64,000 nt of DNA, taken from positions 5,893 through 69,892 of the forward strand of contig CAUJJC010000275.1 of NCBI GenBank assembly GCA_963204975.1, given 5' to 3'. This document shows positions 14,971-29,733 of this stretch, in pieces. Below the pieces are notes generated by a model that was given only the letters and a program-made list of their open reading frames with translations, ran no database searches and was not told the DNA's origin. Position numbers and translations under genes: made by a program. This DNA comes from Verrucomicrobiota bacterium (GTDB lineage Bacteria > Verrucomicrobiota > Verrucomicrobiia > Verrucomicrobiales > Verrucomicrobiaceae). Each line of letters begins with the position of its first letter. Position 1 is the first letter of the stretch.

Positions 14971-17900
14971 TCAAGGCGTCGCCTCCAGCGTGGCACTGCC
15001 GCTCAGCATTCGAGACGTGCTGATCGTGGTCTTCACCGGCAGCAATGCGGGCAGCTCGGGAAGTTGGTAGAAACCGTAGCCCTTCGTGCTCGTGCCATCG
15101 TTCACGATCATACCAGCGACGACCCCTGTGCGTGTGATCGGCTTGTTAGGCACCACCGTGGTATCGGGATCGAGCAGAATGAAGGTGCCCGTGAACGAGC
15201 CCGTGGTGCCAGCCGTGAAGATCGTGCCAGAGCCTGGCGTGAGTGTGACGGTCACAATACCCGGATTCGGTGCCATAATCTTGCCGATGACCGACATGCC
15301 TGGGACCAGCTCAATCGTGTTCAAGTTCAATCGTGTAGCGGGACTTGGAGCCGCCCCACCGAAGAAGGTCATCTTGGCGTTGTTGGGTCCAGCAGTCAGA
15401 CCCATCACAATCGAGCCTGTCGCAGGTATCGCATAAGGTCCTCCACGAACCTCAAGATCAAGCGAGGGGAAGCCCGCCTTGTAGCTGCGCGTCGTGGACT
15501 TGACCGGCTGGGGCTTCTTCAGCCAGCTCAGCACCGATGCTCCCATTCGGAAGCCACCCGTAGGATTCACGTTCAGCGTGCCAAGCAGCGATCCTGTGTT
15601 GGCGTAGAGCAGCTTGAACATGCTCATCGAACCATCCGCTTCGATCGTATTCGAGAACGTCACCACGGTGGCATCGGACAACTTGAACAAGCCAGTCGCC
15701 ACGCCAGTGCCCGCTACTTTGAACGCTCCAATACTGTGACCCTGAGGCTTGGCATCGTCACTTTGGTCAGCAGGCTTGAGCAGCATCGCAAAGGTATAGT
15801 GACCAGCGTAGGAACTCAGCGCTGTGGAGGGCTGGCGTGCCGTGAAGCCTGCGGTGGCAGCACCATCACTCACACTGCCACTGAGCGCACGCGTGCCCGG
15901 AGTGACGGTGAAATTGACGGTCAATGCTGGCAGTCCGGTGCGTGCAATCGTCATGCTGGCGGTCGAGTCCACCGTCAGTCCTGAAGGGCTCAGGGTGCCG
16001 CTCAGCGGATAGGACTTCAGCCCCAGGGTCAACGTGCCTGTGTAGGTGCCTGCCTGCGTCGTTGTAATCGTGACTCTTCCCCCGAGTTCATCATTGAGCA
16101 CAGCACTGCGGCTCACCACGCCTTGATAGCTCCCCACTGTCCCAGCCGCGAGGCCAAAGACCTCCATCGTATCGCTCACCTGCACACTCGGGCCTGCCGC
16201 ATTAGTGGCGATCACGGTCACGTTGGATGTTCCCACCGTGGTGGGGTTGCCCTTGATCAAGCCGGTCGTCGAATTGTATGTCAATCCCAGAGGTAGATTG
16301 GAAATCGTGAACGATGTCGGGTTGTTCGCAGCCGTGACCTGCTTGCTGTAGTTTTCACCGACTCGTGCATCGGCCAAGTTAAGAGGATTCACGACCGGAC
16401 GCACCGGCACCTCCAGTTGCGCGACGTGACTCGTGACCTTTCCCGAGGCGTTCGAGATCACCACGGAGTATGCGCCCGTGTCAGTGCTCAGCACATTATT
16501 CATCGTCAGCGTGGCAGTGGTCGCACCGATGAGCGCGTTGCCGTTCTTCAACCACTGATAAGACAAACCCGCGCCAGTCGCAGTCACGCTCAAGGTCGCA
16601 ATGGCATTCGGCGCGACGATCTTCGACACGGGATGCACTGTGATCGTTGGCGCGGCTGTCACGGTGAGTGTCGCGGTGTTGCTTGTCGCACTGCCGTTCG
16701 TGTTGGATACCACCACGCTGAAAGTGCCTGCCACTGCGGGATTCACCGTGAGCGTCGCTGAGTCGGTGCCAACGTTTGTCGTGCCGCGTTTCCATTGATA
16801 ATGCAAACCTGATCCCGTGGCTTCGACCGTGAACGTGGCACTGCCGCCTGTCACCGCGCCTGCATTCTTCGGATGTCGCACAATCATCGGCGAACCCGCC
16901 ACTTCATCGCCATCCAGCACGCCGTCGCCATCGTGATCAATGGACATCACCTCACCCATGCCCGGCAGCACCCCCATGAAGGTCACGCTGTCTGAACCCG
17001 TGATCTGCGCGAGCAAGGCCGTGCGTGTCACGCCCCCGTTCGATGCCTTGTCGAACTTGTAATTCGTGCCCGTCCACAGCAACGAACGCTGCTGGCCTCC
17101 AATCAGGCCGCGCGCGATCACACTGGTCTCGCCAGTAGCTGCGCGAGCTTCGAGCAAAGCGATGTCCGCTAGCACACCCGTGTCGCTCTTATTCGTCGCC
17201 GTTACTGTTGGCCCATAGCCCACGATCAATCCGACTCCGGTATCGAAGCACATCATGAACGCAGTCATGTTCGCAAAGTCCGCAGGCGTGGTCAGCGAAT
17301 CGAGCACATAAGGATGCACCGTTGGCAGCGCGAAGCCCGTGCCATCGCTCAACATGCCAAAGCCCGAGACGCTGGTGTTGCCAGCGCGTGGATCAAACTT
17401 CTGCTTCTGATACACTAGCCGCAGCGATGGATTCTTGATGGGCTGCACTCGGCCAACTTCCTGAGGCAGGTCGATGTTGTTGTTGCTGCCTCGCGGCAGC
17501 TCGTGGCACAAGGCACAGTGGTTGATGTGAAGATTGAACAAGTCACGCCCGGTCGAAGGGCTCGCCCCGTTGAAGGTGGTAGGCAGCGAGCGCTCCAGGG
17601 TGCGGTTCGGGTTCGGGTGCAGCACCAGCGAAAACAGGTAGCCAGCCAGCAAGTCCATGTCCTCGGACGTTTGCAGCTCTCCGCCCATCAAGTTCTCGAA
17701 GGTGCCGTTGAAGCTCTGCAAAGTCGGCTTGTCACCACGCCAGTGGAAGGGCGCACTGCTTTGAAGATCGCGCAGCGTTTGAGTCACCATCGGTCCTTTC
17801 ATCGGATGCATGGTGCGAGTGCGTGTTTTTGAGTCGTGAATGACCGCATTGATCGCCAACGCCGTGGCCATGTCCCCACCGGGATCACCAAGATCCCAGG

Positions 17901-19242
17901 CAAGGCCATCTCGATCCGCATCAATGTGACAGGTGCCGCAGGACATCGTGCCATTGCCGCTCAGACGTGCATCGAAGAGAAAGCCACGCCCGTCCTTGAT
18001 CTCCATGGGAGTCGGATCATGTGAGCCATTTTTCACTTCGCTCGACACCGTCAGCGTGTTCGTATCCACGACGCTGATCGTGTTGGCTAACTTGTTCAAA
18101 ACAAAGAGCCGACTGCCCGCCTCATCCAGTGCCAACCCGCGAGGACCGCGCATGTTCTTGGTGCTGCCACTCGTGCGCACATCCACACGCGAGAGCACTG
18201 CGCCCGTCGCTGGATCAATCTTCGCCACACGATCCGATGCGAACGCTGCCACCCAAGCCGAAGCACCATCGCTGCTAAAGATCATGCTCATCGGCTGAGC
18301 GAGCGCGGTTGCCTGAGCTGTCTGGTTTGGCAGCGTATTGTAGTCCACGCCAGGATTCAAATCGAAGGGCGTCGTTGTCGCTGTGGTCAAGGCAATGCGA
18401 GTGACGCGATTGTCCGCGAAGTGGCCGTTGAGCATCGGTTCGAAGCGCGTGCGATTCAGCGCCTCCGTGTTTGGAATCCAGAGTTCTTCAGTGCCTGGTC
18501 GCACTGCGACATCGAACAAGTTCGTGCCCACATCGCTGAGGTAGCGAGTCACGGTTTGCGTCGTTGTGTCGATCTCAGCGACGTCGTTATCGAGCACGGT
18601 GTAGCTGATCCGTGAGTCACTCGCATCCACGATCAGAGCCGTCTTCGGAGGCGCGGGCAGATTTGCATTCGTTGGTGCGGGCTGATCGGGCGCTAGGCTC
18701 GCAGGCAGCACGGTGGTGCGATTACCAGAGAAAAGGAAGGCAGCGAAGAGCTTGGTTCCGTCCTCGCTCACGCACAGAGCGCGTGGATAGTCGCCCGTCA
18801 GTGTGATGGTGCCGAGATCAGCACGCGTGCTAGCATCAAAAACTCGAATCAAACCAGCACGAGCGCACGAGATAAACGCCTTCCCGTTCGCGAACACCAC
18901 ATCCGCCGGTTCATCGTTCACCTTGAGAGTGGCGATCACGCTGCCTGATGAAAGCGATACGACCGTCACCGTGTCCGACACTTCATTCACCACCCAGGCT
19001 TCGTCATTGGTGCGAGCACGCACGCTGACGGGATCAAGACCCACGGGCACCTCGGCGGTCAGAGCCATCGTTGAGGCATTGAAAATGGAAAGCCGTGCAT
19101 CTGGCGAATTGATCGCGAGCAGCTTCGAGTTGTCAGGCGTGAGCGCGATGGGATGCACCTGACGTGCTTCGAAGTGCGTGAACGTGGACTGCGCTGCGAG
19201 CGATGACGCGAGCGTGATACTGAGGACGAAGATGCGTAGCAT
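14971..19242 (-). CDS. Giant secreted protein B: YVTN-type beta-propeller + di-haem cytochrome c peroxidase/MauG-like domain + Ig I-set repeats + cadherin-like Ig + shared C-terminal module
   Basis: Start set at ATG 19242 (MLRIFVLSITLASSLAAQ signal peptide). Two CXXCH motifs (SCGTCH, HCALCH) plus FHWRGDKPTLQ (CCP-like). DHDGDGVLDGDE Ca-binding-like motif. HYQWKRG and SYQWLKNG Ig repeats. Confidence 0.85.
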   Translation of the reverse strand: MLRIFVLSITLASSLAAQSTFTHFEARQVHPIALTPDNSKLLAINSPDARLSIFNASTMALTAEVPVGLDPVSVRARTNDEAWVVNEVSDTVTVVSLSSGSVIATLKVNDEPADVVFANGKAFISCARAGLIRVFDASTRADLGTITLTGDYPRALCVSEDGTKLFAAFLFSGNRTTVLPASLAPDQPAPTNANLPAPPKTALIVDASDSRISYTVLDNDVAEIDTTTQTVTRYLSDVGTNLFDVAVRPGTEELWIPNTEALNRTRFEPMLNGHFADNRVTRIALTTATTTPFDLNPGVDYNTLPNQTAQATALAQPMSMIFSSDGASAWVAAFASDRVAKIDPATGAVLSRVDVRTSGSTKNMRGPRGLALDEAGSRLFVLNKLANTISVVDTNTLTVSSEVKNGSHDPTPMEIKDGRGFLFDARLSGNGTMSCGTCHIDADRDGLAWDLGDPGGDMATALAINAVIHDSKTRTRTMHPMKGPMVTQTLRDLQSSAPFHWRGDKPTLQSFNGTFENLMGGELQTSEDMDLLAGYLFSLVLHPNPNRTLERSLPTTFNGASPSTGRDLFNLHINHCALCHELPRGSNNNIDLPQEVGRVQPIKNPSLRLVYQKQKFDPRAGNTSVSGFGMLSDGTGFALPTVHPYVLDSLTTPADFANMTAFMMCFDTGVGLIVGYGPTVTATNKSDTGVLADIALLEARAATGETSVIARGLIGGQQRSLLWTGTNYKFDKASNGGVTRTALLAQITGSDSVTFMGVLPGMGEVMSIDHDGDGVLDGDEVAGSPMIVRHPKNAGAVTGGSATFTVEATGSGLHYQWKRGTTNVGTDSATLTVNPAVAGTFSVVVSNTNGSATSNTATLTVTAAPTITVHPVSKIVAPNAIATLSVTATGAGLSYQWLKNGNALIGATTATLTMNNVLSTDTGAYSVVISNASGKVTSHVAQLEVPVRPVVNPLNLADARVGENYSKQVTAANNPTSFTISNLPLGLTYNSTTGLIKGNPTTVGTSNVTVIATNAAGPSVQVSDTMEVFGLAAGTVGSYQGVVSRSAVLNDELGGRVTITTTQAGTYTGTLTLGLKSYPLSGTLSPSGLTVDSTASMTIARTGLPALTVNFTVTPGTRALSGSVSDGAATAGFTARQPSTALSSYAGHYTFAMLLKPADQSDDAKPQGHSIGAFKVAGTGVATGLFKLSDATVVTFSNTIEADGSMSMFKLLYANTGSLLGTLNVNPTGGFRMGASVLSWLKKPQPVKSTTRSYKAGFPSLDLEVRGGPYAIPATGSIVMGLTAGPNNAKMTFFGGAAPSPATRLNLNTIELVPGMSVIGKIMAPNPGIVTVTLTPGSGTIFTAGTTGSFTGTFILLDPDTTVVPNKPITRTGVVAGMIVNDGTSTKGYGFYQLPELPALLPVKTTISTSRMLSGSATLEATP

Positions 19243-19292
19243 AGAGTGCTTGGATTTTTGGAGATAGTGATCCCCTGAGTTGAGTTGCTGTT

Positions 19293-19330
19293 GCCCGCCC
19301 GTTGAAACTGACCCGAAACAACGGGCGGGC
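19293..19330 (-). promoter_or_regulatory. Conserved leader hairpin, copy 1 (12-bp stem, 14-nt loop), 51 nt upstream of the protein B start
   Basis: GCCCGCCCGTTG-AAACTGACCCGAAA-CAACGGGCGGGC on the + strand. 35/38 identical to the copy at 24390-24427, including one compensatory pair. Confidence 0.6.
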
Positions 19331-19507
19331 TTTGCAAGGCTCGTGCGAGCGGATACCGGCCGCGCACACAAACCGCGCCCCAGCGCAACCACGAGGGTGC
19401 GTTGGGGTGCAAAGTAGTCTTGGGCTTCAGCCCGTGGGAGCGAGGCAGTCTTGTCAACTGCCTGCGCGCATGTGCATCTGCGAAGGGCGGGAGCCCATCA
19501 CTGTCTG

Positions 19508-19909
19508 TTAAGCCACGAGCATCGCCATGCCGCATCGTGGCGGAGGCGTGGGTGGCATGATGAAAAGCTCGACAGCGGTTTCATCAGCCGCAGCAAAGGC
19601 TTGCTCAGGCAAGGCAGGGGCAATCACAATCATCATTCGCGCCTGGGCGATGAGTTCGATCTTCAGCTTCGCTGATGCTTCCTTAGGGTCCTTCTTTTCA
19701 GATTCGGTGCCCTTCTTGATCGCACAACACATGCGGCACGGATGCTCGCCATCAAAGGTCTGGCTCAGGCCTTCCGTGATGGATCCTTCCTTGATCGAAT
19801 AGGTCACGGCCATGCTCACCCAGGCTGCCGTCTGAAGCACAGCCCACTGCCCACCGATGGAAATCATCAAGGCGGTGAGCAGTAAGAATCTGGCGAAACG
19901 ATGAAGCAC
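19508..19909 (-). CDS. Small membrane-anchored Cys-motif protein (HPCxxCC), unknown family, paralog 1
   Basis: 133-aa ORF. TM helix FLLLTALMISIGGQWAVLQTAAWVSMAV, then FDGEHPCRMCCAIKKGTESEKKDPK and a C-terminal PPRC. About 70% identical over about 95 aa to the 24683-25063 product. Confidence 0.7.
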   Translation of the reverse strand: MLHRFARFLLLTALMISIGGQWAVLQTAAWVSMAVTYSIKEGSITEGLSQTFDGEHPCRMCCAIKKGTESEKKDPKEASAKLKIELIAQARMMIVIAPALPEQAFAAADETAVELFIMPPTPPPRCGMAMLVA

Positions 19910-20107
19910 GCCTTCGTCGGTAAAGTGTTTTCAAGTGCGATGCAATGAGCAAATTGACGCACGTATTGTTCCTCTTGGAGCCATCACTATCTCATCACTG
20001 CATCCGACCACCACACCAGCTGTCATCGATCTCCGCACAGGCCTTTCCAGCTCTATCGAAGTGCGACCAAATGCCGCATCGCCAGCCATCATTCATTTCT
20101 CATTCTC

Positions 20108-21412
20108 ATGAAATCCCTCCTCGCTCTCCTTTTCACCGCCTCGCTCCATGCCGCTGATTTCCACGGCTGGACCGCCGAGAGCCCGCGAGACGAAATCCGC
20201 CCGCAGTTCAGCAGCGGAGCCGACAACACACTCATCATCACACACGACGAGCGCGAAGGTCTCGACGGCTGGTTTCAAATGAGCTTCGAGGTGAAGGGCG
20301 GCACGTTTTACCGCTTCGATGCACGGCGAAAGACCAACGGCGTCACGAACCTGCGTCAGAGCTGCCTCGTGCGCCTTGTTTGGCAGGACTCGAATGGCAA
20401 CGGCGTGAAGCTCGATGCTGCGCCGGAGTATCTCACGCCCGGCCTGCCAATGCCCAGCGCCGAGCCCGAGTATCCCGCCGACGGCCCAACGGACGCCGAG
20501 GGCTGGACCACCGTCAGCGGTGTGTATCGCGCGCCGTCGAAGGCCGCGAAGGCCATCATCGAGCTACATCTGCAATGGGCACCCGGAGGCCGTGTCGAGT
20601 GGCGTGGAGCTTCTCTCGTAGCCACCGAAGCTCCCACGCCGCGCAAGGTGCGCCTCGCCACCATCCATCACAAACCTAGGGGCAAATCACCGCGCGAAAA
20701 CTGCGCTGAGTTCGCACCGCTCCTCGCCGAGGCAGCGCAAAAACACGCCGACCTCGTTGTGCTCGGCGAGACCGTGCCCAGCGCGAATGTGAAGGCAAAG
20801 CCCGAGGACATCGCCGAGCCCATCCCCGGCCCCTCGACCACCTACTTTGCCGATCTCGCGAAACAGCACCGCCTGCACATCGTGCTCAGCCTTTACGAGC
20901 GCGACGCGCACCTCATCTACAACACAGCGGTGCTCCTCGGCCCCGATGGCGCATTGATTGGCAAATATCGCAAAGTCTCCCTCCCGCCTGGCGAGGCCGC
21001 GAAAGGCATCGCGCCCGGCAAGGACTATCCCGTCTTCGACACCGCCTTCGGCAAAGTCGGTCTCATGGTCTGCTACGACGGCTTCTTCCCCGAAGTCGCC
21101 CGCGAACTCACGAAGAACGGCGCAGAAGTCATCGCGTGGCCCGTGTGGGGCTGCAATCCGCTGCTCGCCCAGGCCCGTGCGTGCGAGAACCACGTCTTCA
21201 TCGTCAGCAGCACCTTCATGAAACCGGAGGACGGCTGGATGTATTCCGCCATCTACGACCAAGGCGGCCGCCCCCTCGCCAAGGGCGAAAAATGGGGCAC
21301 CGTCATCATCACCGAAGTCGATCTCAACCAACCCTACCACGGCCCCTACAACCTCGGCGATTTTCATTCGATGATCATGAGGCATCGGCCTCCGGTGCCG
21401 GGTGGGAGGTGA
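20108..21412 (+). CDS. Secreted carbon-nitrogen hydrolase (nitrilase superfamily) with an N-terminal ~170 aa accessory domain
   Basis: Signal peptide MKSLLALLFTASLHA. E-K-C triad context: VVLGE, YRKVSLP, MVCYDGFFPE. Confidence 0.8.
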   Translation: MKSLLALLFTASLHAADFHGWTAESPRDEIRPQFSSGADNTLIITHDEREGLDGWFQMSFEVKGGTFYRFDARRKTNGVTNLRQSCLVRLVWQDSNGNGVKLDAAPEYLTPGLPMPSAEPEYPADGPTDAEGWTTVSGVYRAPSKAAKAIIELHLQWAPGGRVEWRGASLVATEAPTPRKVRLATIHHKPRGKSPRENCAEFAPLLAEAAQKHADLVVLGETVPSANVKAKPEDIAEPIPGPSTTYFADLAKQHRLHIVLSLYERDAHLIYNTAVLLGPDGALIGKYRKVSLPPGEAAKGIAPGKDYPVFDTAFGKVGLMVCYDGFFPEVARELTKNGAEVIAWPVWGCNPLLAQARACENHVFIVSSTFMKPEDGWMYSAIYDQGGRPLAKGEKWGTVIITEVDLNQPYHGPYNLGDFHSMIMRHRPPVPGGR

Positions 21413-21413
21413 C

Positions 21414-22187
21414 TCAGCGCCCGATGAACACCTCAGTGGCGTAGAGGAAGGTGACGCTGCCGTTTTGCTCGTGATTTTCAAACAGACGCCGCAATTCCTC
21501 AATCATCGGCTTGTGCAAAGGATGGCCCTCAGCGGGCGCATAGGAGCAAGACAGCAATCGTCCGCAGAGTCCGGCAAAGTCGAAACCCTGCTGATTGGCG
21601 AAGACGTGCTTCTCAAAGATGCCATCGGTGAAAAAGGTCGTCAGAGCTTCCGCATCGACGTTTTCATGCCGAACCTGCATGTAGTCGGGTGTGGAGTGGA
21701 GCAGCAGGTTCTCGTAGTCGCGGAGAAACGGCGTGCTGGCTGTCTGACGCACATTCCAGATGAAGACGATCCTGCCGTCTGGCTTGAGCAGGCGCGTGAA
21801 CTCGCTCCGTGCCCGTGTGCGGTCGAGCCAGTGAAAAGCCTGGGCGGAGACGATGAGATCCATGCTGTGGTCCGCCAAAGTTGTTTCCTCACCCGAGGCG
21901 GCGATGGAGTGGAACAAGGCACTCTGCCCCAGCATGGCCTCCGCTGCTTCACGCATTTCGGCATTGGGCTCCACCGCGAAGACCTCCGCGCCTTCATCAA
22001 GCAGGAGACGTGAAAAAATGCCTGTGCCAGAGCCGATGTCGGCCACCCGGGCACCTCGTTTCAGCCAGCCTCGGTCTTGCAACAAGGTCAGCACACCTTC
22101 CGGATAGCCCGGACGATATCGCACATAGTCCGCGACCCGGTTCGAGAAGCGTGACGTGGCGTTTGCGGGAGGATGATGCGGAAGCAT
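21414..22187 (-). CDS. Class I SAM-dependent methyltransferase
   Basis: 257-aa ORF with motif I VADIGSGTGIFSRLLL and EVFAVEPNAEMR. Confidence 0.85.
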   Translation of the reverse strand: MLPHHPPANATSRFSNRVADYVRYRPGYPEGVLTLLQDRGWLKRGARVADIGSGTGIFSRLLLDEGAEVFAVEPNAEMREAAEAMLGQSALFHSIAASGEETTLADHSMDLIVSAQAFHWLDRTRARSEFTRLLKPDGRIVFIWNVRQTASTPFLRDYENLLLHSTPDYMQVRHENVDAEALTTFFTDGIFEKHVFANQQGFDFAGLCGRLLSCSYAPAEGHPLHKPMIEELRRLFENHEQNGSVTFLYATEVFIGR

Positions 22188-22623
22188 CGAAAGGTTGCGT
22201 GTTATGTCGTGAATGATTCACAACCGGATTGGACTCTAAGAGTATGTTATTGATCGACTGATTTGCCAACTCTCGAAGCTCTGTTGGTCTTACAGAAAGC
22301 AAAACCCGCATTCGGACGTCGTCGAAATGTGCGTTCTTTTTTTGCGACAAAAGTCGAGGATCGGATGCGCGTTTGATACCAACTCATGGTCCGTCACCTC
22401 GCCCCGCTTGTGCGAGACATGATGATGTGGCTCGAGAGGTGATGAGTCGGCTGCCGGAGGCACGGGCGAAGTTCACGCCGGAGATCGTCGAGGAGGCGAT
22501 CAAGCATGACAGCCATTACCCGGGTAGGTTTCAGACGTTTTTGCCCGTAGAGGTCGGTGACAAGGCTATCGCGGCGCTGAAGCTGCGGGGCTGAAATCAC
22601 GCTGCGAATAAGGCTGTTGCGCC

Positions 22624-22944
22624 TCACTTGCTGACGAGCTTGAAGCTCTGAATGACATAATAGGCAGCCTTCTCACCGAGCGCCTTGATTGCAGACTCTT
22701 TGGTGAGGTTGGGCGAACTGGAAGTGACTTCGAGACGTGGTGCAGCGCCTTCCTTACCCAGCTTGATTTTTACAGACGTGACGCCATCGAGCTTGGAAAG
22801 CGCGGCCTTCACATTGCTGGCGCAGGCATTGCAAACGACTCCGGCGACTTCGCCTTCATAGGTGAAGACGGGTTTGTCCTCTGCGGCGGGGAGGACTGCT
22901 GTAATGGTGACAATGAAAAGGGTGATAATGGTTTTGATGTTCAT
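22624..22944 (-). CDS. Periplasmic heavy-metal-associated (HMA) domain protein, copper-chaperone-like
   Basis: Signal/anchor MNIKTIITLFIVTITAVLPAA. HMA metal site GVVCNACASNVKAAL. Confidence 0.75.
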   Translation of the reverse strand: MNIKTIITLFIVTITAVLPAAEDKPVFTYEGEVAGVVCNACASNVKAALSKLDGVTSVKIKLGKEGAAPRLEVTSSSPNLTKESAIKALGEKAAYYVIQSFKLVSK

Positions 22945-22965
22945 AGGGTTGGATGTGTTTTCAGG

Positions 22966-23661
22966 TTAGAATTCGGGGTGATCAAGCAGGGTGATCACGT
23001 CGCGCTGGAGCTTCTCACTCATGAGTTGAGCGATCTCGCTCTCGGAGTGAAAGACCTCATAGTAGCCGCGCACCCGCCCCTGCCGATCAATGAGCACGAT
23101 GCGAAGATCGTGCTGGTAGAGATCTAGCGGATTGAGCCGCTCATCGAGAGGGATGGGCTTCGCCGGAGCGAGTTTCAACTGGGTGTCCATGAAGCTCCAC
23201 AAGCGCTTCTGCTCGCCCGTCATCAGCCACCAGGGATCTCTCGGCTGGAGGCCGATTCCTTCCGCATAGGTATTGAGGAAGGCAGGCGTGTCGTGCTCAG
23301 GTGCGACGGTGATGGACACCTGATGGAAGTCCGTCCGGGCACCATGTGCGTTCTGGAGCTTCATCATCTGCCCCACCACCGCCGCGCATCCATGCGGGCA
23401 GACGGTGTAAAGGTAGGCACAGGTGAAGACCTTGCCGCGCAGGGCGGAGAGGCGCACCTCGCTTCCATCTCGATTGGTAGCAACAAGGTCGCCAGCAATT
23501 CGCGAATACACTGGCAACTGCCCCACCGGACGTCTCTTGTCGATGAGCCGTCCCGCCACCACCAGCAATGCTAGAATGCCAATGATGACGCCGATCATGC
23601 CGCCCCAGAAGCGCAAGGGCGAAAAGGGCGGCAGGGGCTCGCTTGTGGTGTCCTGATTCAT
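22966..23661 (-). CDS. SCO1/SenC family thioredoxin-fold copper chaperone
   Basis: N-terminal TM helix. FTCAYLYTVCPHGC (CxxxC) and a downstream His (FHQVSITVAPEHD), typical of SCO1/SenC. Confidence 0.8.
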   Translation of the reverse strand: MNQDTTSEPLPPFSPLRFWGGMIGVIIGILALLVVAGRLIDKRRPVGQLPVYSRIAGDLVATNRDGSEVRLSALRGKVFTCAYLYTVCPHGCAAVVGQMMKLQNAHGARTDFHQVSITVAPEHDTPAFLNTYAEGIGLQPRDPWWLMTGEQKRLWSFMDTQLKLAPAKPIPLDERLNPLDLYQHDLRIVLIDRQGRVRGYYEVFHSESEIAQLMSEKLQRDVITLLDHPEF

Positions 23662-24311
23662 CAGCGGTCAGCGATTTTAAGGAGTTCTGCTTCCGTCCAC
23701 ATCGCTGTGCGAGCCTTCTCCACATCGCGGATGGCTTTGACTTCCTCCGGTGTCACAGCGCTAGCTTTGTTGCCCCAGGAGTTACGGACGTAAGTCAGCA
23801 CGTCTGCGATTTGCTTGTCCGACAACGCCGCTCCCTGCGGTGGCATCAGAGGCGCCGCTGTCGCGAAGGGCTTGCCGTTGATCGAGATCGGTCCCGTCAT
23901 CCCGTGAAGCACGTTGCGGATGATGCGGTCCGGCTTCGGAGCGATCACCCAATCGGAACCCGCGAGAGGTGGAAACATATTGGGCATCCCAAGGCCGGTC
24001 GGTTGATGGCAGGCGAAGCACACCAGCATGTATGTCTTCTGCCCCTCAGCCATCTGTGCCGTCAGTCCATCGCCAGCAGGGGCGGAAGATGCCTCAGGCG
24101 ACGCCTCCGAGGCTGGCGTTGCGATTGCGGGCGAGGCCGTTGGGATGGCACTTGCCTGCACGGCTGGTTGCGGATGGCGAAGGTTGTAGCTGGCCTTGAT
24201 GCCTCCCAAGACAAAGGTGATGGGAAAATAGGCGGCACCTACCGCTAAGACGATGGCGATGACTTTATTGATGACTGACCAGGGTGATGAATGGGGTGCG
24301 GATGCGGACAT
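23661..24311 (-). CDS. Membrane-anchored class I c-type cytochrome
   Basis: Start set at ATG 24311 (MSASAPHSSPW..., TM helix VIAIVLAVGAAYFPITFVLGG). Haem motif CFACHQPTG with distal Met context (PLMPPQG). The stop abuts the SCO1 start. Confidence 0.8.
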   Translation of the reverse strand: MSASAPHSSPWSVINKVIAIVLAVGAAYFPITFVLGGIKASYNLRHPQPAVQASAIPTASPAIATPASEASPEASSAPAGDGLTAQMAEGQKTYMLVCFACHQPTGLGMPNMFPPLAGSDWVIAPKPDRIIRNVLHGMTGPISINGKPFATAAPLMPPQGAALSDKQIADVLTYVRNSWGNKASAVTPEEVKAIRDVEKARTAMWTEAELLKIADR

Positions 24312-24389
24312 AAAAAGCGAGTCTTTGATAGAGGTTTCAGATGCGCGAGATGCCTTTATCCGGGCATCGCGGAATGAGGGAAGAGTGTC

Positions 24390-24427
24390 GCCCGCCCGAT
24401 GAAACTGACCCGAAACATCAGGCGGGC
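24390..24427 (-). promoter_or_regulatory. Conserved leader hairpin, copy 2, 79 nt upstream of the cytochrome c start
   Basis: GCCCGCCCGATG-AAACTGACCCGAAA-CATCAGGCGGGC. The loop is identical to copy 1. The flanking GCGGATACCGGCCGC block is also conserved. Confidence 0.6.
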
Positions 24428-24682
24428 TATGCACGAACTCGACTGCGCGGATACCGGCCGCACATCCGAGTCACAGCATCACACAACCATGACGGTGCGT
24501 GATGGTGCAAAAGGGGCGATGACAGGGCCAGAGGGGTCTGAAGTAGTCGCTCGAAAGGCATCACTCAGAGCACGGAACTGCTCATGATCACAAGGGTCCG
24601 ACAACAACCGAACAAATCGTTAGACACCAATGCGAAGTCAAAGATGACCTTCCGCTCTTTGAACAACTAGGCTGGCCCTGCC

Positions 24683-25063
24683 TCAGGCGCAGCGCGGCGG
24701 CTGATGTGGCGGAGCCTCGGCCCTCGCCTGCGCGACTTGAGTTGCAGCACCGTGGTCCACTTCAGCGTCCGACGGTGCGATCACCACGATGGCTCTGCCA
24801 TGCGTGAAAAGCTCCAGCTTCTTCTTCGCGGTTTCCTGTTTCGGATCCTTTTTCTCAGACTCTGTGCCCTTCTTCACCACACAGCAGAGGGGGCATGGAT
24901 GCTCACCATCGAAGGTCTCGCTCAGTCCTTTTGTAAGGGAGCCCGCTTTGATCGAATAGCTGACGGCCATGCTGATCCATGCTGCTGATTGCAACACAGC
25001 CCACTGAGCACCGATGGAAATCATCAGAGCGCTCACGAGCAGGAATCTGGCGAGGCGGATCAC
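24683..25063 (-). CDS. Small membrane-anchored Cys-motif protein (HPCxxCC), paralog 2
   Basis: 126-aa ORF: FLLVSALMISIGAQWAVLQSAAWISMAV, FDGEHPCPLCCVVKKGTESEKKDPK, C-terminal PPRCA. Confidence 0.7.
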   Translation of the reverse strand: MIRLARFLLVSALMISIGAQWAVLQSAAWISMAVSYSIKAGSLTKGLSETFDGEHPCPLCCVVKKGTESEKKDPKQETAKKKLELFTHGRAIVVIAPSDAEVDHGAATQVAQARAEAPPHQPPRCA

Positions 25064-25103
25064 GCCCTGTTGATAAACAGCTTATGAGTTGAGCGCAAGT
25101 CTT

Positions 25104-25139
25104 TCGAAAACAACACAGCCGGAGATTTCTCTCCGGCTG
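25104..25139 (-). terminator. Intrinsic terminator downstream of the glutathione peroxidase gene
   Basis: Perfect 10-bp stem CAGCCGGAGA-TTTC-TCTCCGGCTG (25116-25139), followed on the minus strand by TGTTGTTTTC. Confidence 0.65.
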
Positions 25140-25168
25140 CGCTCAAATAGAGGTGCAGTGTGCGTGAG

Positions 25169-25717
25169 CTATTTCTTCGCCAGCGCTTTCTCGATAGCCT
25201 CGACCACGGCGGGGTCGGTCACTTTGGTCTTGGGCTCGATCCGCATGATGGGTTTGCCATCGCGACCCACGAGGAACTTGCCGAAATTCCATTTCACATC
25301 CCCTGGGAAGGCCCCTTTCTTGCCGGTGAGCGCTTCATACAGCGGATGCTTGGGCTCGCCCATCACCTGCACCTTGTCGAACATGGGGAAGGTCACGTTG
25401 TATTTGGTCGTGCAGAAGGTTTTCACCTCTTCATTCGAGCCCGGCTCCTGGCCACCGAAGTCATTGCAGGGGAAGCCCATGATCACGAGACCCTGGTCCT
25501 TGTATTTCCCGAAGGCAGCTTCGAGGTCCTTGTATTGAGGCGTGTTGCCACACTTGGAGGCGACATTCACGATAAGCAGCACTTTGCCATCGAAGGCTTT
25601 GAGGGAGGTCTCCTTGCCATCAATGTCCTTCAGCGAGATGTCTTTGAGGGCTTTGTGAGTTTCCGCGCCGATCACAGCGGTGGCGGCCAGCATTAGAGAG
25701 AGGAAGATGTATTTCAT
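25169..25717 (-). CDS. gpx: Glutathione peroxidase (Cys-type), secreted/periplasmic
   Basis: Start set at MKYIFLSLMLAATAVIGA (signal peptide). Motifs NVASKCG, FPCNDFGGQEPG, WNFGKFLV. Confidence 0.9.
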   Translation of the reverse strand: MKYIFLSLMLAATAVIGAETHKALKDISLKDIDGKETSLKAFDGKVLLIVNVASKCGNTPQYKDLEAAFGKYKDQGLVIMGFPCNDFGGQEPGSNEEVKTFCTTKYNVTFPMFDKVQVMGEPKHPLYEALTGKKGAFPGDVKWNFGKFLVGRDGKPIMRIEPKTKVTDPAVVEAIEKALAKK

Positions 25718-25840
25718 GGGCCTCCAAAGACGGTTCCACAGCTCGATACTTTTCAGAACATTCGATGCGCACATCACCCCATGCCAGACGTAAGGGCCTC
25801 TCGAACTGACTCTCTCAACCCACAACTTGAATCCAATCCT

Positions 25841-26554
25841 ATGAACCGTCGCTCCTTCATCACCACCTCCAGCACCGCTGCCATCGGCGCGCTAGTCGCC
25901 GCTCCTCAGGCACACGCTGAAATCACTCTGCCCGCTCTACCCTATGCGCCTGCTGCGCTGGAGCCCCACATTGATGCCGAGACCATGACCATCCATCATG
26001 ACAAGCATCATGCCGCCTACATCGCGAAGCTGAACGATGCGCTCAAAGCACTCAACCAGCCCGACGCCAATCCTCTCGATCTCATCACCAAGATCTCTTC
26101 ACTGCCCAGCGATCAGCAGATGGCCGTTCGCAACCATGGCGGCGGGCATGTGAATCACTCCTGGTTCTGGAACTGGATGGCCCCAGCGGGCAGCGGTCCC
26201 TCAGGCCCGGATGGCAAACTCGCCGCAAAGATTCAAAGCACCTTCGGTAGCATTGATGACTTCAAAAAGACTTTCAATGACGCAGCCACGAAGCGCTTTG
26301 GCTCCGGTTGGGCGTGGTTGATTGTGAAATCCGATGGCTCGGTGGCGATTACCTCCACGGCGAATCAGGACAATCCATTGATGAAAGGGGTGGTGCCGGA
26401 TTCCGATCTCGGCACGCCTGTGCTCGGGCTCGATGTCTGGGAGCACGCCTACTATCTGAAGTATCGCAACAAGCGCCCCGACTACATCACCGCCTGGTGG
26501 AACGTGGTGAACTGGGCCGAGGTGAACAAACTGGCCGCAGCTGCTGGCGTCTAA
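25841..26554 (+). CDS. sod: Fe/Mn-family superoxide dismutase with a twin-arginine signal peptide
   Basis: Start set at MNRRSFITTSSTAAIGALVAAPQAHA (Tat-like RR motif). Motifs HHDKHHAAY and DVWEHAYY. Confidence 0.9.
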   Translation: MNRRSFITTSSTAAIGALVAAPQAHAEITLPALPYAPAALEPHIDAETMTIHHDKHHAAYIAKLNDALKALNQPDANPLDLITKISSLPSDQQMAVRNHGGGHVNHSWFWNWMAPAGSGPSGPDGKLAAKIQSTFGSIDDFKKTFNDAATKRFGSGWAWLIVKSDGSVAITSTANQDNPLMKGVVPDSDLGTPVLGLDVWEHAYYLKYRNKRPDYITAWWNVVNWAEVNKLAAAAGV

Positions 26555-26603: not shown

Positions 26604-26733
26604 CGTGCTCTCGGGAAGCAAGGGGGTGCTCGGATTGCCTTCTCCTTGGCAAAGACTCCTCACCATCTGCGCATCGGAAGGATCAGGGGCAAGGCGGCGT
26701 AGGTTTGCGCAGCCTCTGTCCCGCCTTTCAAGC

Positions 26734-29733
26734 ATGAAACCACTTCCCGTTATCGGCTGGCTCGCATTGTTGATACCAGCCTCCGTCTCCCTGGCAGGCC
26801 CCGTCGATTTCGCGCGCGACATCAAGCCACTGCTCAACAAGCACTGCACGGCCTGCCATGGCGGCGTGAAGCAGGCGAGCAATCTGTCGCTCGTCTATCA
26901 CAGCAAGGTGCTCGAACCCGCAAAGTCCGGGAAGATTCCCGTCGTGCCCGGCAACCTGGACAAGTCCGAACTCATCGCGCGCATCACGACCACCGATGAC
27001 GACGAAGTGATGCCGCCACCGAAGCACGGCAAACGTCTGCCTGAGCACGACATCCAGCTCTTCAAAGACTGGATCAGTCAAGGCGCTCCGTGGGACGAGC
27101 ACTGGGCCTTCGTGAAGCCAAAGCCGCCAACACTACCCGATCTCAAAGACAAGTCCTGGCCGAAGCAAAGCCTAGATGCCTTCGTGCTCGCGAAGCTGGA
27201 AAGCGAAGGACTCAAGCCATCGCCCGAGGCTGACCGTGCGCAGTGGCTGCGCCGTGTGTCGCTCGATCTGACGGGCTTGCCTCCGACGCCTGAGGAGGTT
27301 TCGTCATTCGCCACTCAGAATTCGTCATTCGAGTCAGTCGTTGATCGCTTGCTGCGCTCACCCGCCTTCGGCGAGCGCTGGGCCAGCGTGTGGCTCGATC
27401 TCTCGCGCTATGCCGACTCCCAAGGCTACGAAGCCGACAAGCCGCGCATCATCTGGCCATATCGCGACTGGTTAATCCGCGCGTTGAATGCGGACATGCC
27501 GTTCGACCAGTTCGCCATCAAACAGCTCGCGGGCGATCTTTTGCCGAAGGCGACACTCGATGACCGCATCGCCACCGCGTTCCATCGGAACACGCCTACG
27601 AACTCGGAGGGTGGCACCGATGATGAGGAGTTCCGCGTGGTCGCTGTCGTTGATCGCATCGCAACGACATGGCGCACATTCCAGGGCGTGACCTTCAACT
27701 GCGTGCAGTGCCACTCACATCCCTATGATCCCATCGAGCATAGCGAGTTCTACAACTTCATGGCCTTCTTCAATACTCAGAAGGACTGGGACTTGCCCGA
27801 AGACGAACCCAAGCTGCGCGTGCCTCTGAAGGACGGTGACTTCGCCAAAGCTCAGCATCTCGACGATCAAATGCTCGCCCTGCGCTCCGCCAAGGTGAAC
27901 GAGATGATGCAACGCAGCGAGTCGGCAAAATGGAAGTCCTTGCAGCCGAGCGCCGTGCAGTCGTCAGGCCAGACAAAGCTGATTACCAAAAAGGCCGAGG
28001 ACGGCATCACGGACGTCGTCGCGCAAGGCACTGTGTCGCACTACTCCGTGTTCACGATTGATGCGCCCGTGCCTGCGGGAACGAAGAAGCTGACCGCGCT
28101 GAAGATGGACGCGCTGCCGCTCGATCCTGTGAAGGCGAAGAGCACCGCTGAGCTGGGCTATGTCGTGTCGCTGCTGCGCGCCATCGTGGTCACCCCGGAG
28201 ACGGAGGCGAAAGTCTTCGCTGCTACGAGTGTCCCGCCAGAGCAGGAATTGGATGTCGCGGTCAATGCGAGTGCAAAGAAGAAAGTATCGTCACCACCAG
28301 CGCCCAAGGGCGTGCCCAATCCGCCGCCGCAGCCCGGCGAGATCACCTTCACCTATGCGCTCGGCGACGAAGCTGATCCAGTCTTCGATGCACAGACCAC
28401 GTTGAACGCCGACAAAGGTGGCTGGGGCGCGAACCCACGGATGACGCATACACGACGCCTCGTGCTCATCCCGTCAAAGCCCGTTGAATTGCCTGCCAAT
28501 GCAAAGCTCCGCATCATCATGCGCCACGATGAAGGCGGCTTTGGCTACGCACCGCTCGTCACGAACCGCAGCCGCTTCGGCATCTCGGACAGCGATGAAT
28601 GGACGAGCTACACAAGCAGCAGAGCCTTCACCGATCGCGAAGCTCAACTCGTGAAGCTCGACAAGGATCGCAGCGCCATCGCGAATGCTTTGATGCCAGT
28701 GATGGAAGAACAAGACGCGCACCTCAAGCGCCAGACCGCGACCTTCGTGCGCGGCAACTGGCTGGACAAAGGCGAGGTTGTTGAGCCGACGATCCCGGCA
28801 GTCTTTGGCACCATGCCGAAGTCGAACGATCCTGCGAGGCTCGCGCTCGCGAAGTGGATGGCGTCGGTGAAGAACCCGCTCACCGCTCGCGTCGCCGTGA
28901 ATCGCTTCTGGGAGCAACTCTTCGGCACCGGGATTGTCGAGACGTTGGAGGACTTCGGCAGCAGCGGTCAGGCACCGTCGAATCAAGCACTGCTCGATCA
29001 CCTCGCCGTGCGCTTCCAGACCGACCTCGGCTGGAGCATGAAGAAGCTGCTGCGCGAGATCGTCCTCAGCGCCACCTATCGCCAGAGCGCGAAGACTTCG
29101 CCGGAACTGCGCGAACGCGACCCGCACAATCGCTTACTCGCTCGTGGACCTCGCACGCGCCTCACTGCCGAGATGGTGCGCGACAACGCCCTGTTCGTTG
29201 CTGGCGTGCTATCGCCCAAGATATTCGGCCCGCCCGTCATGCCCGTGCAACCCGACGGCATCTGGCGAGCAGCCCGCAGCGGTGCGAAATGGAAGAACGC
29301 CACAGGCGACGATGCGCATCGCCGCTCGCTCTACACCTACTGGCGTCGCACGAGTCCGTATCCGAGCAGCCTCACTTTCGATGTGCCGGATCGCTTGCTA
29401 TGCACCGCCCGCCGCACCGCAACGAATACGCCGTTGCAAGCGCTCGTTACGCTCAACGATCCCGTCTTCATGGAAGCCGCCGTCGCGCTCGCCACGCGAG
29501 TCGAGAAGGCTGGCGACTTGAAGCAGCAGATCGCGCAAGCCTACGAACTCGCGACCAGCGCGAAGCCGAGTGCGAGCGACATCACCGATCTCATCGCCCT
29601 GCATGACGCGGCACTCGCTGAATACAAAGCGGACGCGAAGCTCGCCAAGTCGCTCGGCAACACGCCCGAGAAAGCCGCGCTCGCCGTGGTCGCGAATGCC
29701 ATCCTCAACCTCGACACCGTCCTCACCAAATGA
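26734..29733 (+). CDS. PSCyt1 (planctomycete-type cytochrome c) + DUF1549 + DUF1553 protein
   Basis: Start set at MKPLPVIGWLALLIPASVSLA. N-terminal CTACHGG haem motif. RRVSLDLTGLPPTPEEV (DUF1549-like). CVQCHSHPYD and RFWEQLFG (DUF1553-like). Confidence 0.85.
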   Translation: MKPLPVIGWLALLIPASVSLAGPVDFARDIKPLLNKHCTACHGGVKQASNLSLVYHSKVLEPAKSGKIPVVPGNLDKSELIARITTTDDDEVMPPPKHGKRLPEHDIQLFKDWISQGAPWDEHWAFVKPKPPTLPDLKDKSWPKQSLDAFVLAKLESEGLKPSPEADRAQWLRRVSLDLTGLPPTPEEVSSFATQNSSFESVVDRLLRSPAFGERWASVWLDLSRYADSQGYEADKPRIIWPYRDWLIRALNADMPFDQFAIKQLAGDLLPKATLDDRIATAFHRNTPTNSEGGTDDEEFRVVAVVDRIATTWRTFQGVTFNCVQCHSHPYDPIEHSEFYNFMAFFNTQKDWDLPEDEPKLRVPLKDGDFAKAQHLDDQMLALRSAKVNEMMQRSESAKWKSLQPSAVQSSGQTKLITKKAEDGITDVVAQGTVSHYSVFTIDAPVPAGTKKLTALKMDALPLDPVKAKSTAELGYVVSLLRAIVVTPETEAKVFAATSVPPEQELDVAVNASAKKKVSSPPAPKGVPNPPPQPGEITFTYALGDEADPVFDAQTTLNADKGGWGANPRMTHTRRLVLIPSKPVELPANAKLRIIMRHDEGGFGYAPLVTNRSRFGISDSDEWTSYTSSRAFTDREAQLVKLDKDRSAIANALMPVMEEQDAHLKRQTATFVRGNWLDKGEVVEPTIPAVFGTMPKSNDPARLALAKWMASVKNPLTARVAVNRFWEQLFGTGIVETLEDFGSSGQAPSNQALLDHLAVRFQTDLGWSMKKLLREIVLSATYRQSAKTSPELRERDPHNRLLARGPRTRLTAEMVRDNALFVAGVLSPKIFGPPVMPVQPDGIWRAARSGAKWKNATGDDAHRRSLYTYWRRTSPYPSSLTFDVPDRLLCTARRTATNTPLQALVTLNDPVFMEAAVALATRVEKAGDLKQQIAQAYELATSAKPSASDITDLIALHDAALAEYKADAKLAKSLGNTPEKAALAVVANAILNLDTVLTK

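Follow-up and report, generated by a model that had tools for sequence, protein, structure and literature searches.

Two small paralogous open reading frames (ORFs) in a 64,000-nucleotide stretch of Verrucomicrobiota DNA (assembly GCA_963204975.1, contig CAUJJC010000275.1, positions 5,893 to 69,892; hereafter the window) each stand at the head of a set of haem and copper genes, which raises the question of what such a small protein does there. ORF A (24683..25063, minus strand, GTG start, 126 aa) is the first gene of a cytochrome c-SCO1-HMA unit and ORF B (19508..19909, minus strand, GTG start, 133 aa) precedes the gene for a giant beta-propeller/di-haem protein. An initial annotation suggested a metal (Cu) or thiol-redox role in maturing or regulating periplasmic haem and copper proteins. 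Based on the observed architecture, conservation pattern, fixed spacing, gene order and structured spacer, we favor, with a probability of roughly 60%, the reading that A and B belong to the type of copper-sensing leader peptide represented by the proteobacterial CruR and CutF, acting in cis and being exported as they are translated, with ORF A predicted to encode a small exported HPCxxC leader protein.

BLASTP aligned A and B over 123 aa without gaps at 63% identity (E 2e-59), and the approximately 70% identity that had been reported over the first ~95 aa was reproduced (66 of 94 positions, 70%, in residues 2-95). Identity was 81% both in the hydrophobic segment (residues 7-38) and in the FDGEHPC..CC..KKGTESEKKDPK block (residues 50-76), was only 34% in residues 77-117, and climbed again toward the PP..PPR end. 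Different codons are used at 38 of the 78 residues identical in A and B, which indicates that their similarity has been kept by selection on the protein. Three public assemblies include a gene call for ORF A, which is 100% identical to protein P0001. The public gene call of ORF B begins at an internal Met and gives a product of 119 aa, leaving 19868-19909 (minus strand) outside the gene. The GTG at 19909, which gives 133 aa, is the more likely start on the basis of conservation, as the residues upstream of that Met, RFARFLLL (N-terminal RFARFLL), are kept across the family.

This family proved to be large. A word-indexed search returned 151 homologues, all the named ones of which were Verrucomicrobial, and when 1.84 billion cluster representatives (50% identity) were searched exhaustively with a profile, 2,790 matched at E<=1e-3, of which 1,835 did so at E<=1e-10. 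There were 405 loci in GTDB species genomes, from which 80 loci of 16 kb each were fetched, and the named ones among these 80 were all from Verrucomicrobiota. In an alignment of 35 diverse family members (alignment A2), the invariant residues were S16, G18, W21, Q25, A28, M32, F51, D52, G53, H55, P56, C57, C60, P118, P122 and P123. The conserved core of the family consists of TFDGxHxCxxC and a C-terminal PPPR. The HxCxxC was found in 264 of the 268 members scanned for it; all other motif counts were made over 262 members. The initial annotation had stressed the cysteines of HPCxxCC and PPRC, and it is the HxCxxC pair that is conserved, while the third Cys of CxxCC occurs in only 45 members (17%) and the Cys after the last PP in only 62 (24%). 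The H-P-C-x-x-C of ORF A (residues 55-60; 24884..24901, minus strand), in which H55, P56, C57 and C60 are those invariant in alignment A2, is a putative periplasmic Cu(I) site. Direct reading and alignment placed its counterpart in ORF B, H-P-C-R-M-C, at residues 56-61 (19727..19744, minus strand).

The C-terminal consensus of the family is R-x3-P-P-x-P-P-P-R, with Pro at position -1 in 196 of the 262 members and R at +2 in 213. The last PP is located 3-5 residues from the stop codon in 207 members, and 197 members have a distance of 60-63 residues between the second Cys of the CxxC and this PP, despite the intervening sequence being poorly conserved. All four Pro codons occur at each PPP position across 67 loci, which indicates that the peptide, and not the RNA, is under selection. 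In ORF A the putative ribosome-arrest motif is PPHQPPR (residues 118-124; 24692..24712, minus strand), which ends two residues before the stop and contains QPPR. In ORF B the corresponding putative motif is PPTPPPR (residues 119-125; 19535..19555, minus strand), with the full PPP of the family consensus and thus PPPR. The last PP is followed by three residues in ORF A and by nine in ORF B.

Family members occur in multiple copies per genome, with 19 of the 80 16-kb loci holding two or three, as does the window itself with its two. Several copies per genome, each heading its own operon, are as expected of a cis-acting element. Tandem arrays of leader-headed operons were seen in loci L016, L017, L023, L026, L033, L050, L052, L053 and L055, and tandem copies include variants in which HPC is replaced by HAC, HGC or HSC, or FDG by FDN. 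When clades of the small protein were compared with operon type, the nearest neighbour was of the same class in 25 of 57 cases versus an expected 11.9, with some shuffles reaching 28.

Structural predictions identified a single membrane helix and little else. The hydrophobic signal-anchor or transmembrane (TM) helix of ORF A (residues 7-38; 24950..25045, minus strand) was delineated by alignment A2, AlphaFold2 (AF2) and hydropathy, with a Kyte-Doolittle maximum of 1.78 and with R3 and R6 flanking it N-terminally. The alignment-based AF2 model has one confident helix (residues 2-40; predicted local distance difference test, pLDDT, about 80-86), in agreement with the single TM helix proposed initially, and A and B are predicted to have the N-in/C-out topology that is a criterion for CruR. 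One face of the helix, comprising G18, W21, Q25, A28/W29 and M32, is invariant (residues 16-32; 24968-25018, minus strand). The remainder of the model has pLDDT values of 54-68, with short, low-confidence helices surrounding the CxxC, and no globular periplasmic domain was modelled (predicted template modelling score, pTM, 0.26). These low values fit a nascent-chain sensor better than a folded protein. Scans of A and B against Pfam-A and NCBIfam gave no match at E<=10, Pfam (E<=10) and NCBIfam scans of 33 further homologues found nothing, and a profile search of the sequences in the PDB returned only one chance match of 18 residues.

To compare gene neighbourhoods, downstream same-strand ORFs were clustered and representatives annotated for those GTDB loci, 63 in all, whose downstream sequence was usable. 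In 44 of the 63, at least one of the first four same-strand genes downstream encodes a TonB-dependent receptor, PepSY_TM, cytochrome c, SCO1, HMA or giant di-haem protein. The linkage to haem and copper genes, loss of which had been named beforehand as a possible refutation, therefore held. The most common first gene encodes a TonB-dependent receptor (Plug plus barrel; 14 loci), followed in seven of these by PepSY_TM, which came next in eight loci overall. Other first genes encode a cytochrome c (10 loci, typically with SCO1 and HMA thereafter), a giant beta-propeller/di-haem protein (9), an outer-membrane-barrel-like protein (6), a pseudopilin-like protein (4) or a small CxxCH protein (3). 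The association with haem c proposed from the window thus survived in that copper and haem genes do adjoin the family, but is better described as one with copper handling generally, since the commonest first neighbour is a TonB-dependent receptor.

Crude longest-ORF calls sometimes picked antisense ORFs (e.g., in locus L047); these were corrected from called-gene contexts with precomputed Pfam matches, which served as a cross-check and agreed with the ORF clustering. Among called genes, the window arrangement was seen in three assemblies, and in the isolate Prosthecobacter fusiformis the family gene is followed by genes for a TonB-dependent transporter and PepSY_TM. In another context the family gene and a 287-nt spacer precede genes for cytochrome c, SCO1, HMA, TonB, ExbB, ExbD and HupE/UreJ. 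A further family gene is followed by a 277-nt spacer and a gene cut off by the end of the contig, which encodes at least 1117 aa and has no Pfam record; judged by its size, we take it to be of the giant-protein type.

The spacers downstream of the two window ORFs are long and structured. Spacer A (24312..24682, minus strand; 371 nt) extends from ORF A to the cytochrome c ATG at 24311, and spacer B (19243..19507, minus strand; 265 nt) from ORF B to the giant-protein ATG at 19242. No intrinsic terminator was predicted in either spacer, and no Shine-Dalgarno sequence is evident before the cytochrome c or giant-protein start. Alignment of the A and B loci revealed a conserved block past the ORFs, the core of which occurs twice only in the window, where chance predicts zero occurrences. 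The block represents a three-hairpin RNA-like element of ~135 nt, located at 24384..24518 in spacer A and 19287..19420 in spacer B (both minus strand, each scoring 147 bits with a covariance model), with a 5' single-stranded CYTTTGCACC and the conserved loops CGTCAT, CCGGTAT and TTTCGGGTCAGTTT. Further copies were identified at L001:8498-8631, where a giant protein is downstream, at L002:8500-8632, where a TonB receptor is downstream, and in L095, L099, L114 and L151. RNAalifold analysis of the eight sequences (about six of them distinct) gave three hairpins with 39 pairs, 14 of which have compensatory changes, and all eight copies are located 88-226 nt after the stop codon of a family ORF. 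The element matches no Rfam family, and we consider it a candidate new cis-regulatory RNA. An Rfam scan of 19100-25300 gave a sub-threshold match to CyVA-1 at 20292-20355, which was treated as chance.

The covariance model recovered the known copies at 117-147 bits, and a search with it (model R1) found no diverged element in the other 76 family loci, which indicates that the element is specific to the clade of the window genome and its closest relatives within the Verrucomicrobiaceae. A pattern scan of metagenomes gave 93 stretches, of which 80 were fetched; the complete element was present in only four, 144-226 nt after a family ORF stop, and the other fetched pattern matches were dismissed as chance matches in GC-rich DNA. 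Across the family, the spacers have a weak skew of C over G (rut-like), with a median of 0.22 versus 0.17 in controls (Mann-Whitney p 2e-5). The highest-scoring 60-nt segment of spacer A (0.30) is directly before the RNA element, and in both window spacers the most C-rich, G-poor stretch directly precedes the element. Based on the distance of the element from the stop codon, the C-rich stretch before it and the absence of a predicted intrinsic terminator, this layout would fit a Rho-type mechanism better than the stem-loop mechanism of CutF. Folding of the short junction of Prosthecobacter fusiformis gave a z-score of 0.75, which is uninformative.

From these features we infer a mechanism that comprises export, copper binding, arrest and a switch with a particular direction. 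The signal-anchor helix would bring the nascent chain to the Sec translocon (SecYEG), with its C-terminal part destined for the outside, and the ribosome would pause on the C-terminal PPPR, 3-5 codons short of the stop. At this pause the HxCxxC would lie 60-63 residues back, past the tunnel and translocon and just exposed to the periplasm, as ~60 residues from the peptidyl-transferase centre is approximately the span of ribosome tunnel plus translocon. Binding of Cu(I) to the HxCxxC, or disulfide formation without copper, would alter the force on the nascent chain or its conformation and hence the lifetime of the arrest. Whether the ribosome was arrested or released at the end of the leader would then decide transcription or translation through the structured spacer into the copper genes. 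Under the logic of CruR, arrest without copper would keep the operon on, and copper would free the ribosome and shut the operon off, possibly via Rho. We favor this logic because the downstream genes serve copper acquisition or cuproenzyme assembly (OprC-like TonB receptor, PepSY_TM, SCO1, HMA, cytochrome c and di-haem protein). The direction of the switch is uncertain, however, since the PPP motif is of the CutF type. As regards the role first proposed for the two proteins, the link to copper is borne out by the 44 loci described above and regulating is probably correct; maturing probably is not, because no globular domain is predicted and the hallmarks are those of a cis-acting arrest leader rather than of a chaperone or an oxidoreductase.

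Several observations weigh against this assignment. A, B and 33 homologues had no match at E<=10 to PF11162, the DUF2946 family of CruR. Alignment by hhalign with 46 true DUF2946 members covered only 15 columns around the CxxC with a probability of 32%, the probability with 206 versus 115 sequences was 1.8%, and cross-searches with hidden Markov models (HMMs) were insignificant. The family motif is PPPR and not the RAPP of CruR, albeit at the right position (207/262), and ORF A has only QPPR. The elements in the window start 88-165 nt past the stop codon, beyond direct melting by a stalled ribosome, and the element is absent outside a narrow clade. The enrichment of C over G is modest, with only 7% of loci exceeding the 95th percentile of the controls. 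In addition, conservation of the TM helix far exceeds that of a generic signal anchor; the arrest-peptide model leaves its invariant face unexplained, and this face is a hint that the protein may be stable in the membrane and have a partner. That alternative, which is near the proposal of the initial annotation, would be a bitopic protein that binds copper at its periplasmic HxCxxC and acts in trans, serving the receptor, SCO1 or di-haem systems as accessory subunit, chaperone or sensor, with the Pro-rich end as a structural or interaction motif. In its favor, the face G18-W21-Q25-A28/W29-M32 is of a kind typically seen where helices pack specifically, a genuine metal site could be built from the HxCxxC and adjacent D/E residues, the surrounding genes are consistently linked to copper, and homology to experimentally proven arrest peptides was not detected. 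Against it, no folded periplasmic domain is predicted. The linker between CxxC and PPPR, variable in sequence and fixed in length, is more easily understood as a ruler for tunnel plus translocon, the Pro motif is conserved next to the stop codon (again 207/262), and a factor acting in trans needs no copy per operon. We regard this alternative as possible but rather unlikely.

The remaining explanations appear far less probable. Regulation could reside mainly in the spacer RNA, as a riboswitch-like or protein-bound three-hairpin structure, with the small ORF an unrelated conserved membrane protein. The 14 compensatory pairs among about six distinct sequences (eight rows) and the occurrence of the element before three operon types (cytochrome c, giant protein and, in L002, TonB receptor) are consistent with this, but it is very unlikely given that the RNA is confined to the window genome and its closest relatives, with 76 other family loci lacking a match, while the ORF, with its linkage to copper genes, extends across the whole family and is the constant partner, 88-226 nt upstream of every copy. 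It is extremely unlikely that the proteins are thiol-disulfide oxidoreductases for cytochrome c maturation, resembling CcmH or CcsX in having a CxxC near a membrane anchor and keeping the haem-binding cysteines of apocytochromes reduced. Both window copies precede CxxCH proteins and AF2 placed short, low-confidence helices near the CxxC; against this, Pfam (E<=10), NCBIfam and the PDB sequence profile search gave no match to CcmH or the thioredoxin family, neither a thioredoxin fold nor an LRCxxC three-helix domain is predicted, and the commonest first neighbour, the TonB-dependent receptor with PepSY_TM, carries no haem c.

The lead from the family to copper-sensing leader peptides in the literature was the UniRef label "DUF2946 domain-containing", which UniProt gives to one distant homologue (P. 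algae, UniRef100_A0ABP9P731). For comparison, 120 PF11162 proteins were collected. One true DUF2946 protein reads ...HCPLC...RGPPFLT-stop. The positions of the genes are also equivalent. Between the Verrucomicrobial receptor of locus L041 and TonB-dependent receptors on proteobacterial replicons, identity is 38-40%. Five of the latter were inspected, and four have an annotated DUF2946 gene upstream, in three cases directly before the receptor. The DUF2946 gene is immediately before the receptor in Bradyrhizobium, Novosphingobium and Burkholderia gladioli, the last of which has a DJ-1/PfpI gene downstream, as in locus L016. In Ralstonia a YcnI gene lies between the DUF2946 gene and the receptor, and no DUF2946 gene is listed near the receptor of Methylobacterium radiotolerans. 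The earlier statement that A and B cannot be placed in a named family thus holds insofar as no HMM places them, but their architecture and gene order match the CruR/CutF class (PMC9426467, PMC9973294). As homology could not be shown and there are no Verrucomicrobia in the table of Roy et al., we do not file the family under Pfam DUF2946, and on the analyses above the best reading is that it represents a variant of this type of device. More tentatively, we speculate that the family is a convergent copper-sensing transmembrane arrest peptide, rather than a diverged DUF2946, that has spread massively in Verrucomicrobiota. Its TM face might then be active in the sensor (e.g., through a grip on the lateral gate of the translocon, or on a partner, that sets the pulling force), the 60-63-residue ruler might set the HxCxxC at the periplasmic mouth of SecY, and one clade might have added a new three-hairpin RNA.

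Both window ORFs are, as first described, at the 5' end of minus-strand gene strings in which a c-type haem protein is encoded next. ORF A is followed by genes for a membrane-anchored class I cytochrome c (23661..24311, minus strand, 216 aa; PF00034, E 1.4e-11), a SCO1/SenC copper chaperone (22966..23661, minus strand; PF02630, E 3.3e-14) and a secreted HMA-domain metal chaperone (22624..22944, minus strand; PF00403, E 5.4e-8). ORF B is followed by the gene for the giant protein (14971..19242, minus strand, 1423 aa), which by domain matches and gene call combines beta-propeller, CCP_MauG-like di-haem and Ig domains and holds two CxxCH sites. The only related solved structure for its di-haem region was 6e1c, "Di-heme enzyme", a weak match (E 0.0014, residues 415-456) to what we take to be MbnH. 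The Ig-like region of the giant protein has far stronger matches to phage tail and decoration proteins (E 1e-38).

A glutathione peroxidase gene is upstream of ORF A on the same strand. Direct reading identified a 10-bp hairpin and T-run at 25106..25139 (minus strand; CAGCCGGAGA-GAAA-TCTCCGGCTG-TGTTGTTTTC) that closes the peroxidase gene, and ORF A thus still heads its own unit. The ~40 nt between this T-run and the ORF A GTG (25064-25105, minus strand) align with the region upstream of ORF B. The shared stretch, TTGC..ACT..AA.C..TTTA.C.AC.A.GGCGTG, points to a promoter common to A and B and to an mRNA with almost no leader. In the closest GTDB relative (L001:7260-12978) the order is glutathione peroxidase, a small ORF with a B-like C-terminus, and giant protein, versus the interrupted order in the window (19508-25825), where A, cytochrome c, SCO1, HMA and methyltransferase genes and a divergent CN-hydrolase gene sit between the peroxidase gene and B. 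Based on this difference, the A cassette appears to have arisen by insertion or duplication, carrying its leader ORF and RNA element with it.

Divergent from the glutathione peroxidase gene are genes for a Fe/Mn superoxide dismutase (25781-26554, plus strand), which has a long N-terminal extension with RRSF, a possible TAT signal, and for a PSCyt1/PSCyt2/PSD1 "planctomycete cytochrome" protein (26605-29733, plus strand). By their predicted functions, the dismutase and this cytochrome form an oxidative-stress/haem cluster around the two leader-headed units. Elsewhere, small secreted proteins with a C-terminal NCKACHxxHK, which contains a CxxCH haem site, recur beside family members (ORF calls L042:8723-9079, L043:3304-3747, L053:7401-7919 and L185:6732-7088). 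These proteins are ~118 aa in the gene call and in L042, with crude longest-ORF extensions giving 147-172 aa. They had no Pfam or NCBIfam match and, from the motif, could be an unclassified small cytochrome c.

To our knowledge, copper-responsive arrest-peptide upstream ORFs have been described or tested so far only in Proteobacteria, where CruR and CutF are the examples. Surveys based on RAPP/RGPP motifs or DUF2946 would miss the present family because of its PPPR motif and its lack of a PF11162 match. If the leader-peptide assignment is correct, a family numbering thousands of members would give Verrucomicrobia post-transcriptional control over several operons per genome, among them those for an OprC-like copper receptor, SCO1 and HMA chaperones and the giant MbnH-like di-haem protein. 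It would also provide a functional handle on uncharacterised downstream proteins, which would be copper-regulated and probably copper-related. The longer ruler (60-63 versus 41-45 residues) and conserved TM helix would be a natural variant for studying how a ligand on the outside affects stalling. The finding would extend a known mechanism and not represent a new kind of protein.

Of the known systems, the SecM/RAPP-type peptides ApdA and ApdP monitor Sec translocation activity and control sec/yidC genes (PMC10987492). The inferred behavior of the family is similar in that an exported nascent chain would undergo C-terminal arrest, modulated beyond the translocon, and control the next gene, but those peptides are without a metal motif. 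CruR (Bp2923) of Bordetella pertussis is a DUF2946/PF11162 protein that requires both its CXXC and a C-terminal RAPP located three residues from the end, and in which the 45-residue spacing between them is conserved and important (Roy et al. 2022; PMC9426467). More than 95% of DUF2946 members have an export signal, and copper was proposed to relieve translation arrest of CruR, leading to Rho-dependent termination in a 162-nt spacer (PMC9426467). In vitro arrest at the CruR RAPP has been demonstrated (PMC12992588). CruR homologues head operons for TonB-dependent transporters, PepSY_TM, ScoC, PCuAC, YcnI, CopC, MbnPH-like and AhpC_TSA proteins, and long spacers are usual (PMC9426467). The Verrucomicrobial family resembles CruR in that a small first gene encodes an N-terminal export signal or TM helix, a conserved CXXC and, only a few residues from the stop codon, a motif containing Pro. 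It also shares long spacers (371 and 265 nt in the window), gene sets (TonB-dependent receptor then PepSY_TM; SCO, MbnH-like di-haem and peroxidase genes) and a fixed distance from metal motif to Pro motif, although this distance is 60-63 residues versus the 45 of CruR. It differs in that its metal motif is extended to TFDGxHxCxxC, its TM helix is highly conserved whereas the CruR signal is dispensable, and its hosts are Verrucomicrobiota, which are absent from Table S1 of Roy et al. with its more than 2,000 DUF2946 proteins (PMC9426467).

CutF of Rhodobacter capsulatus is Sec-exported and has a CxxxC and the C-terminus P109-EPEGPPPRL-118, of which the GPPPRL-stop is experimentally required (PMC9973294; bioRxiv 10.1101/2025.02.05.636593). 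Periplasmic copper binding lengthens stalling at the PPP, overriding EF-P, such that a stem-loop hiding the cutO ribosome-binding site melts (PMC9973294; bioRxiv 10.1101/2025.02.05.636593). Unlike the family, CutF has a CxxxC rather than an HxCxxC and a cleavable Sec signal, and it controls a copper-detoxifying multicopper oxidase, whereas the genes downstream of family members serve copper acquisition and assembly. The CutF stem-loop abuts the stop and hides a Shine-Dalgarno sequence, in contrast to the window hairpins, which are 88-165 nt away with no Shine-Dalgarno sequence evident. CutF-like proteins have been defined as those of fewer than 150 aa that have a signal peptide, a Cys/His site and a PP among their final 15 residues, and whose gene is followed on the same strand by another less than 1 kb away (Ozturk et al. 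2023; PMC9973294); A and B, with 126 and 133 aa, a predicted N-terminal signal and spacers of 371 and 265 nt, fall within this definition. The mRNA downstream of the leader ORF is predicted to be structured, as it is for CutF, and the end of the protein itself is close to that of CutF, with the PPPR-x(2-4)-stop of the family being nearly identical to the GPPPRL-stop of CutF.

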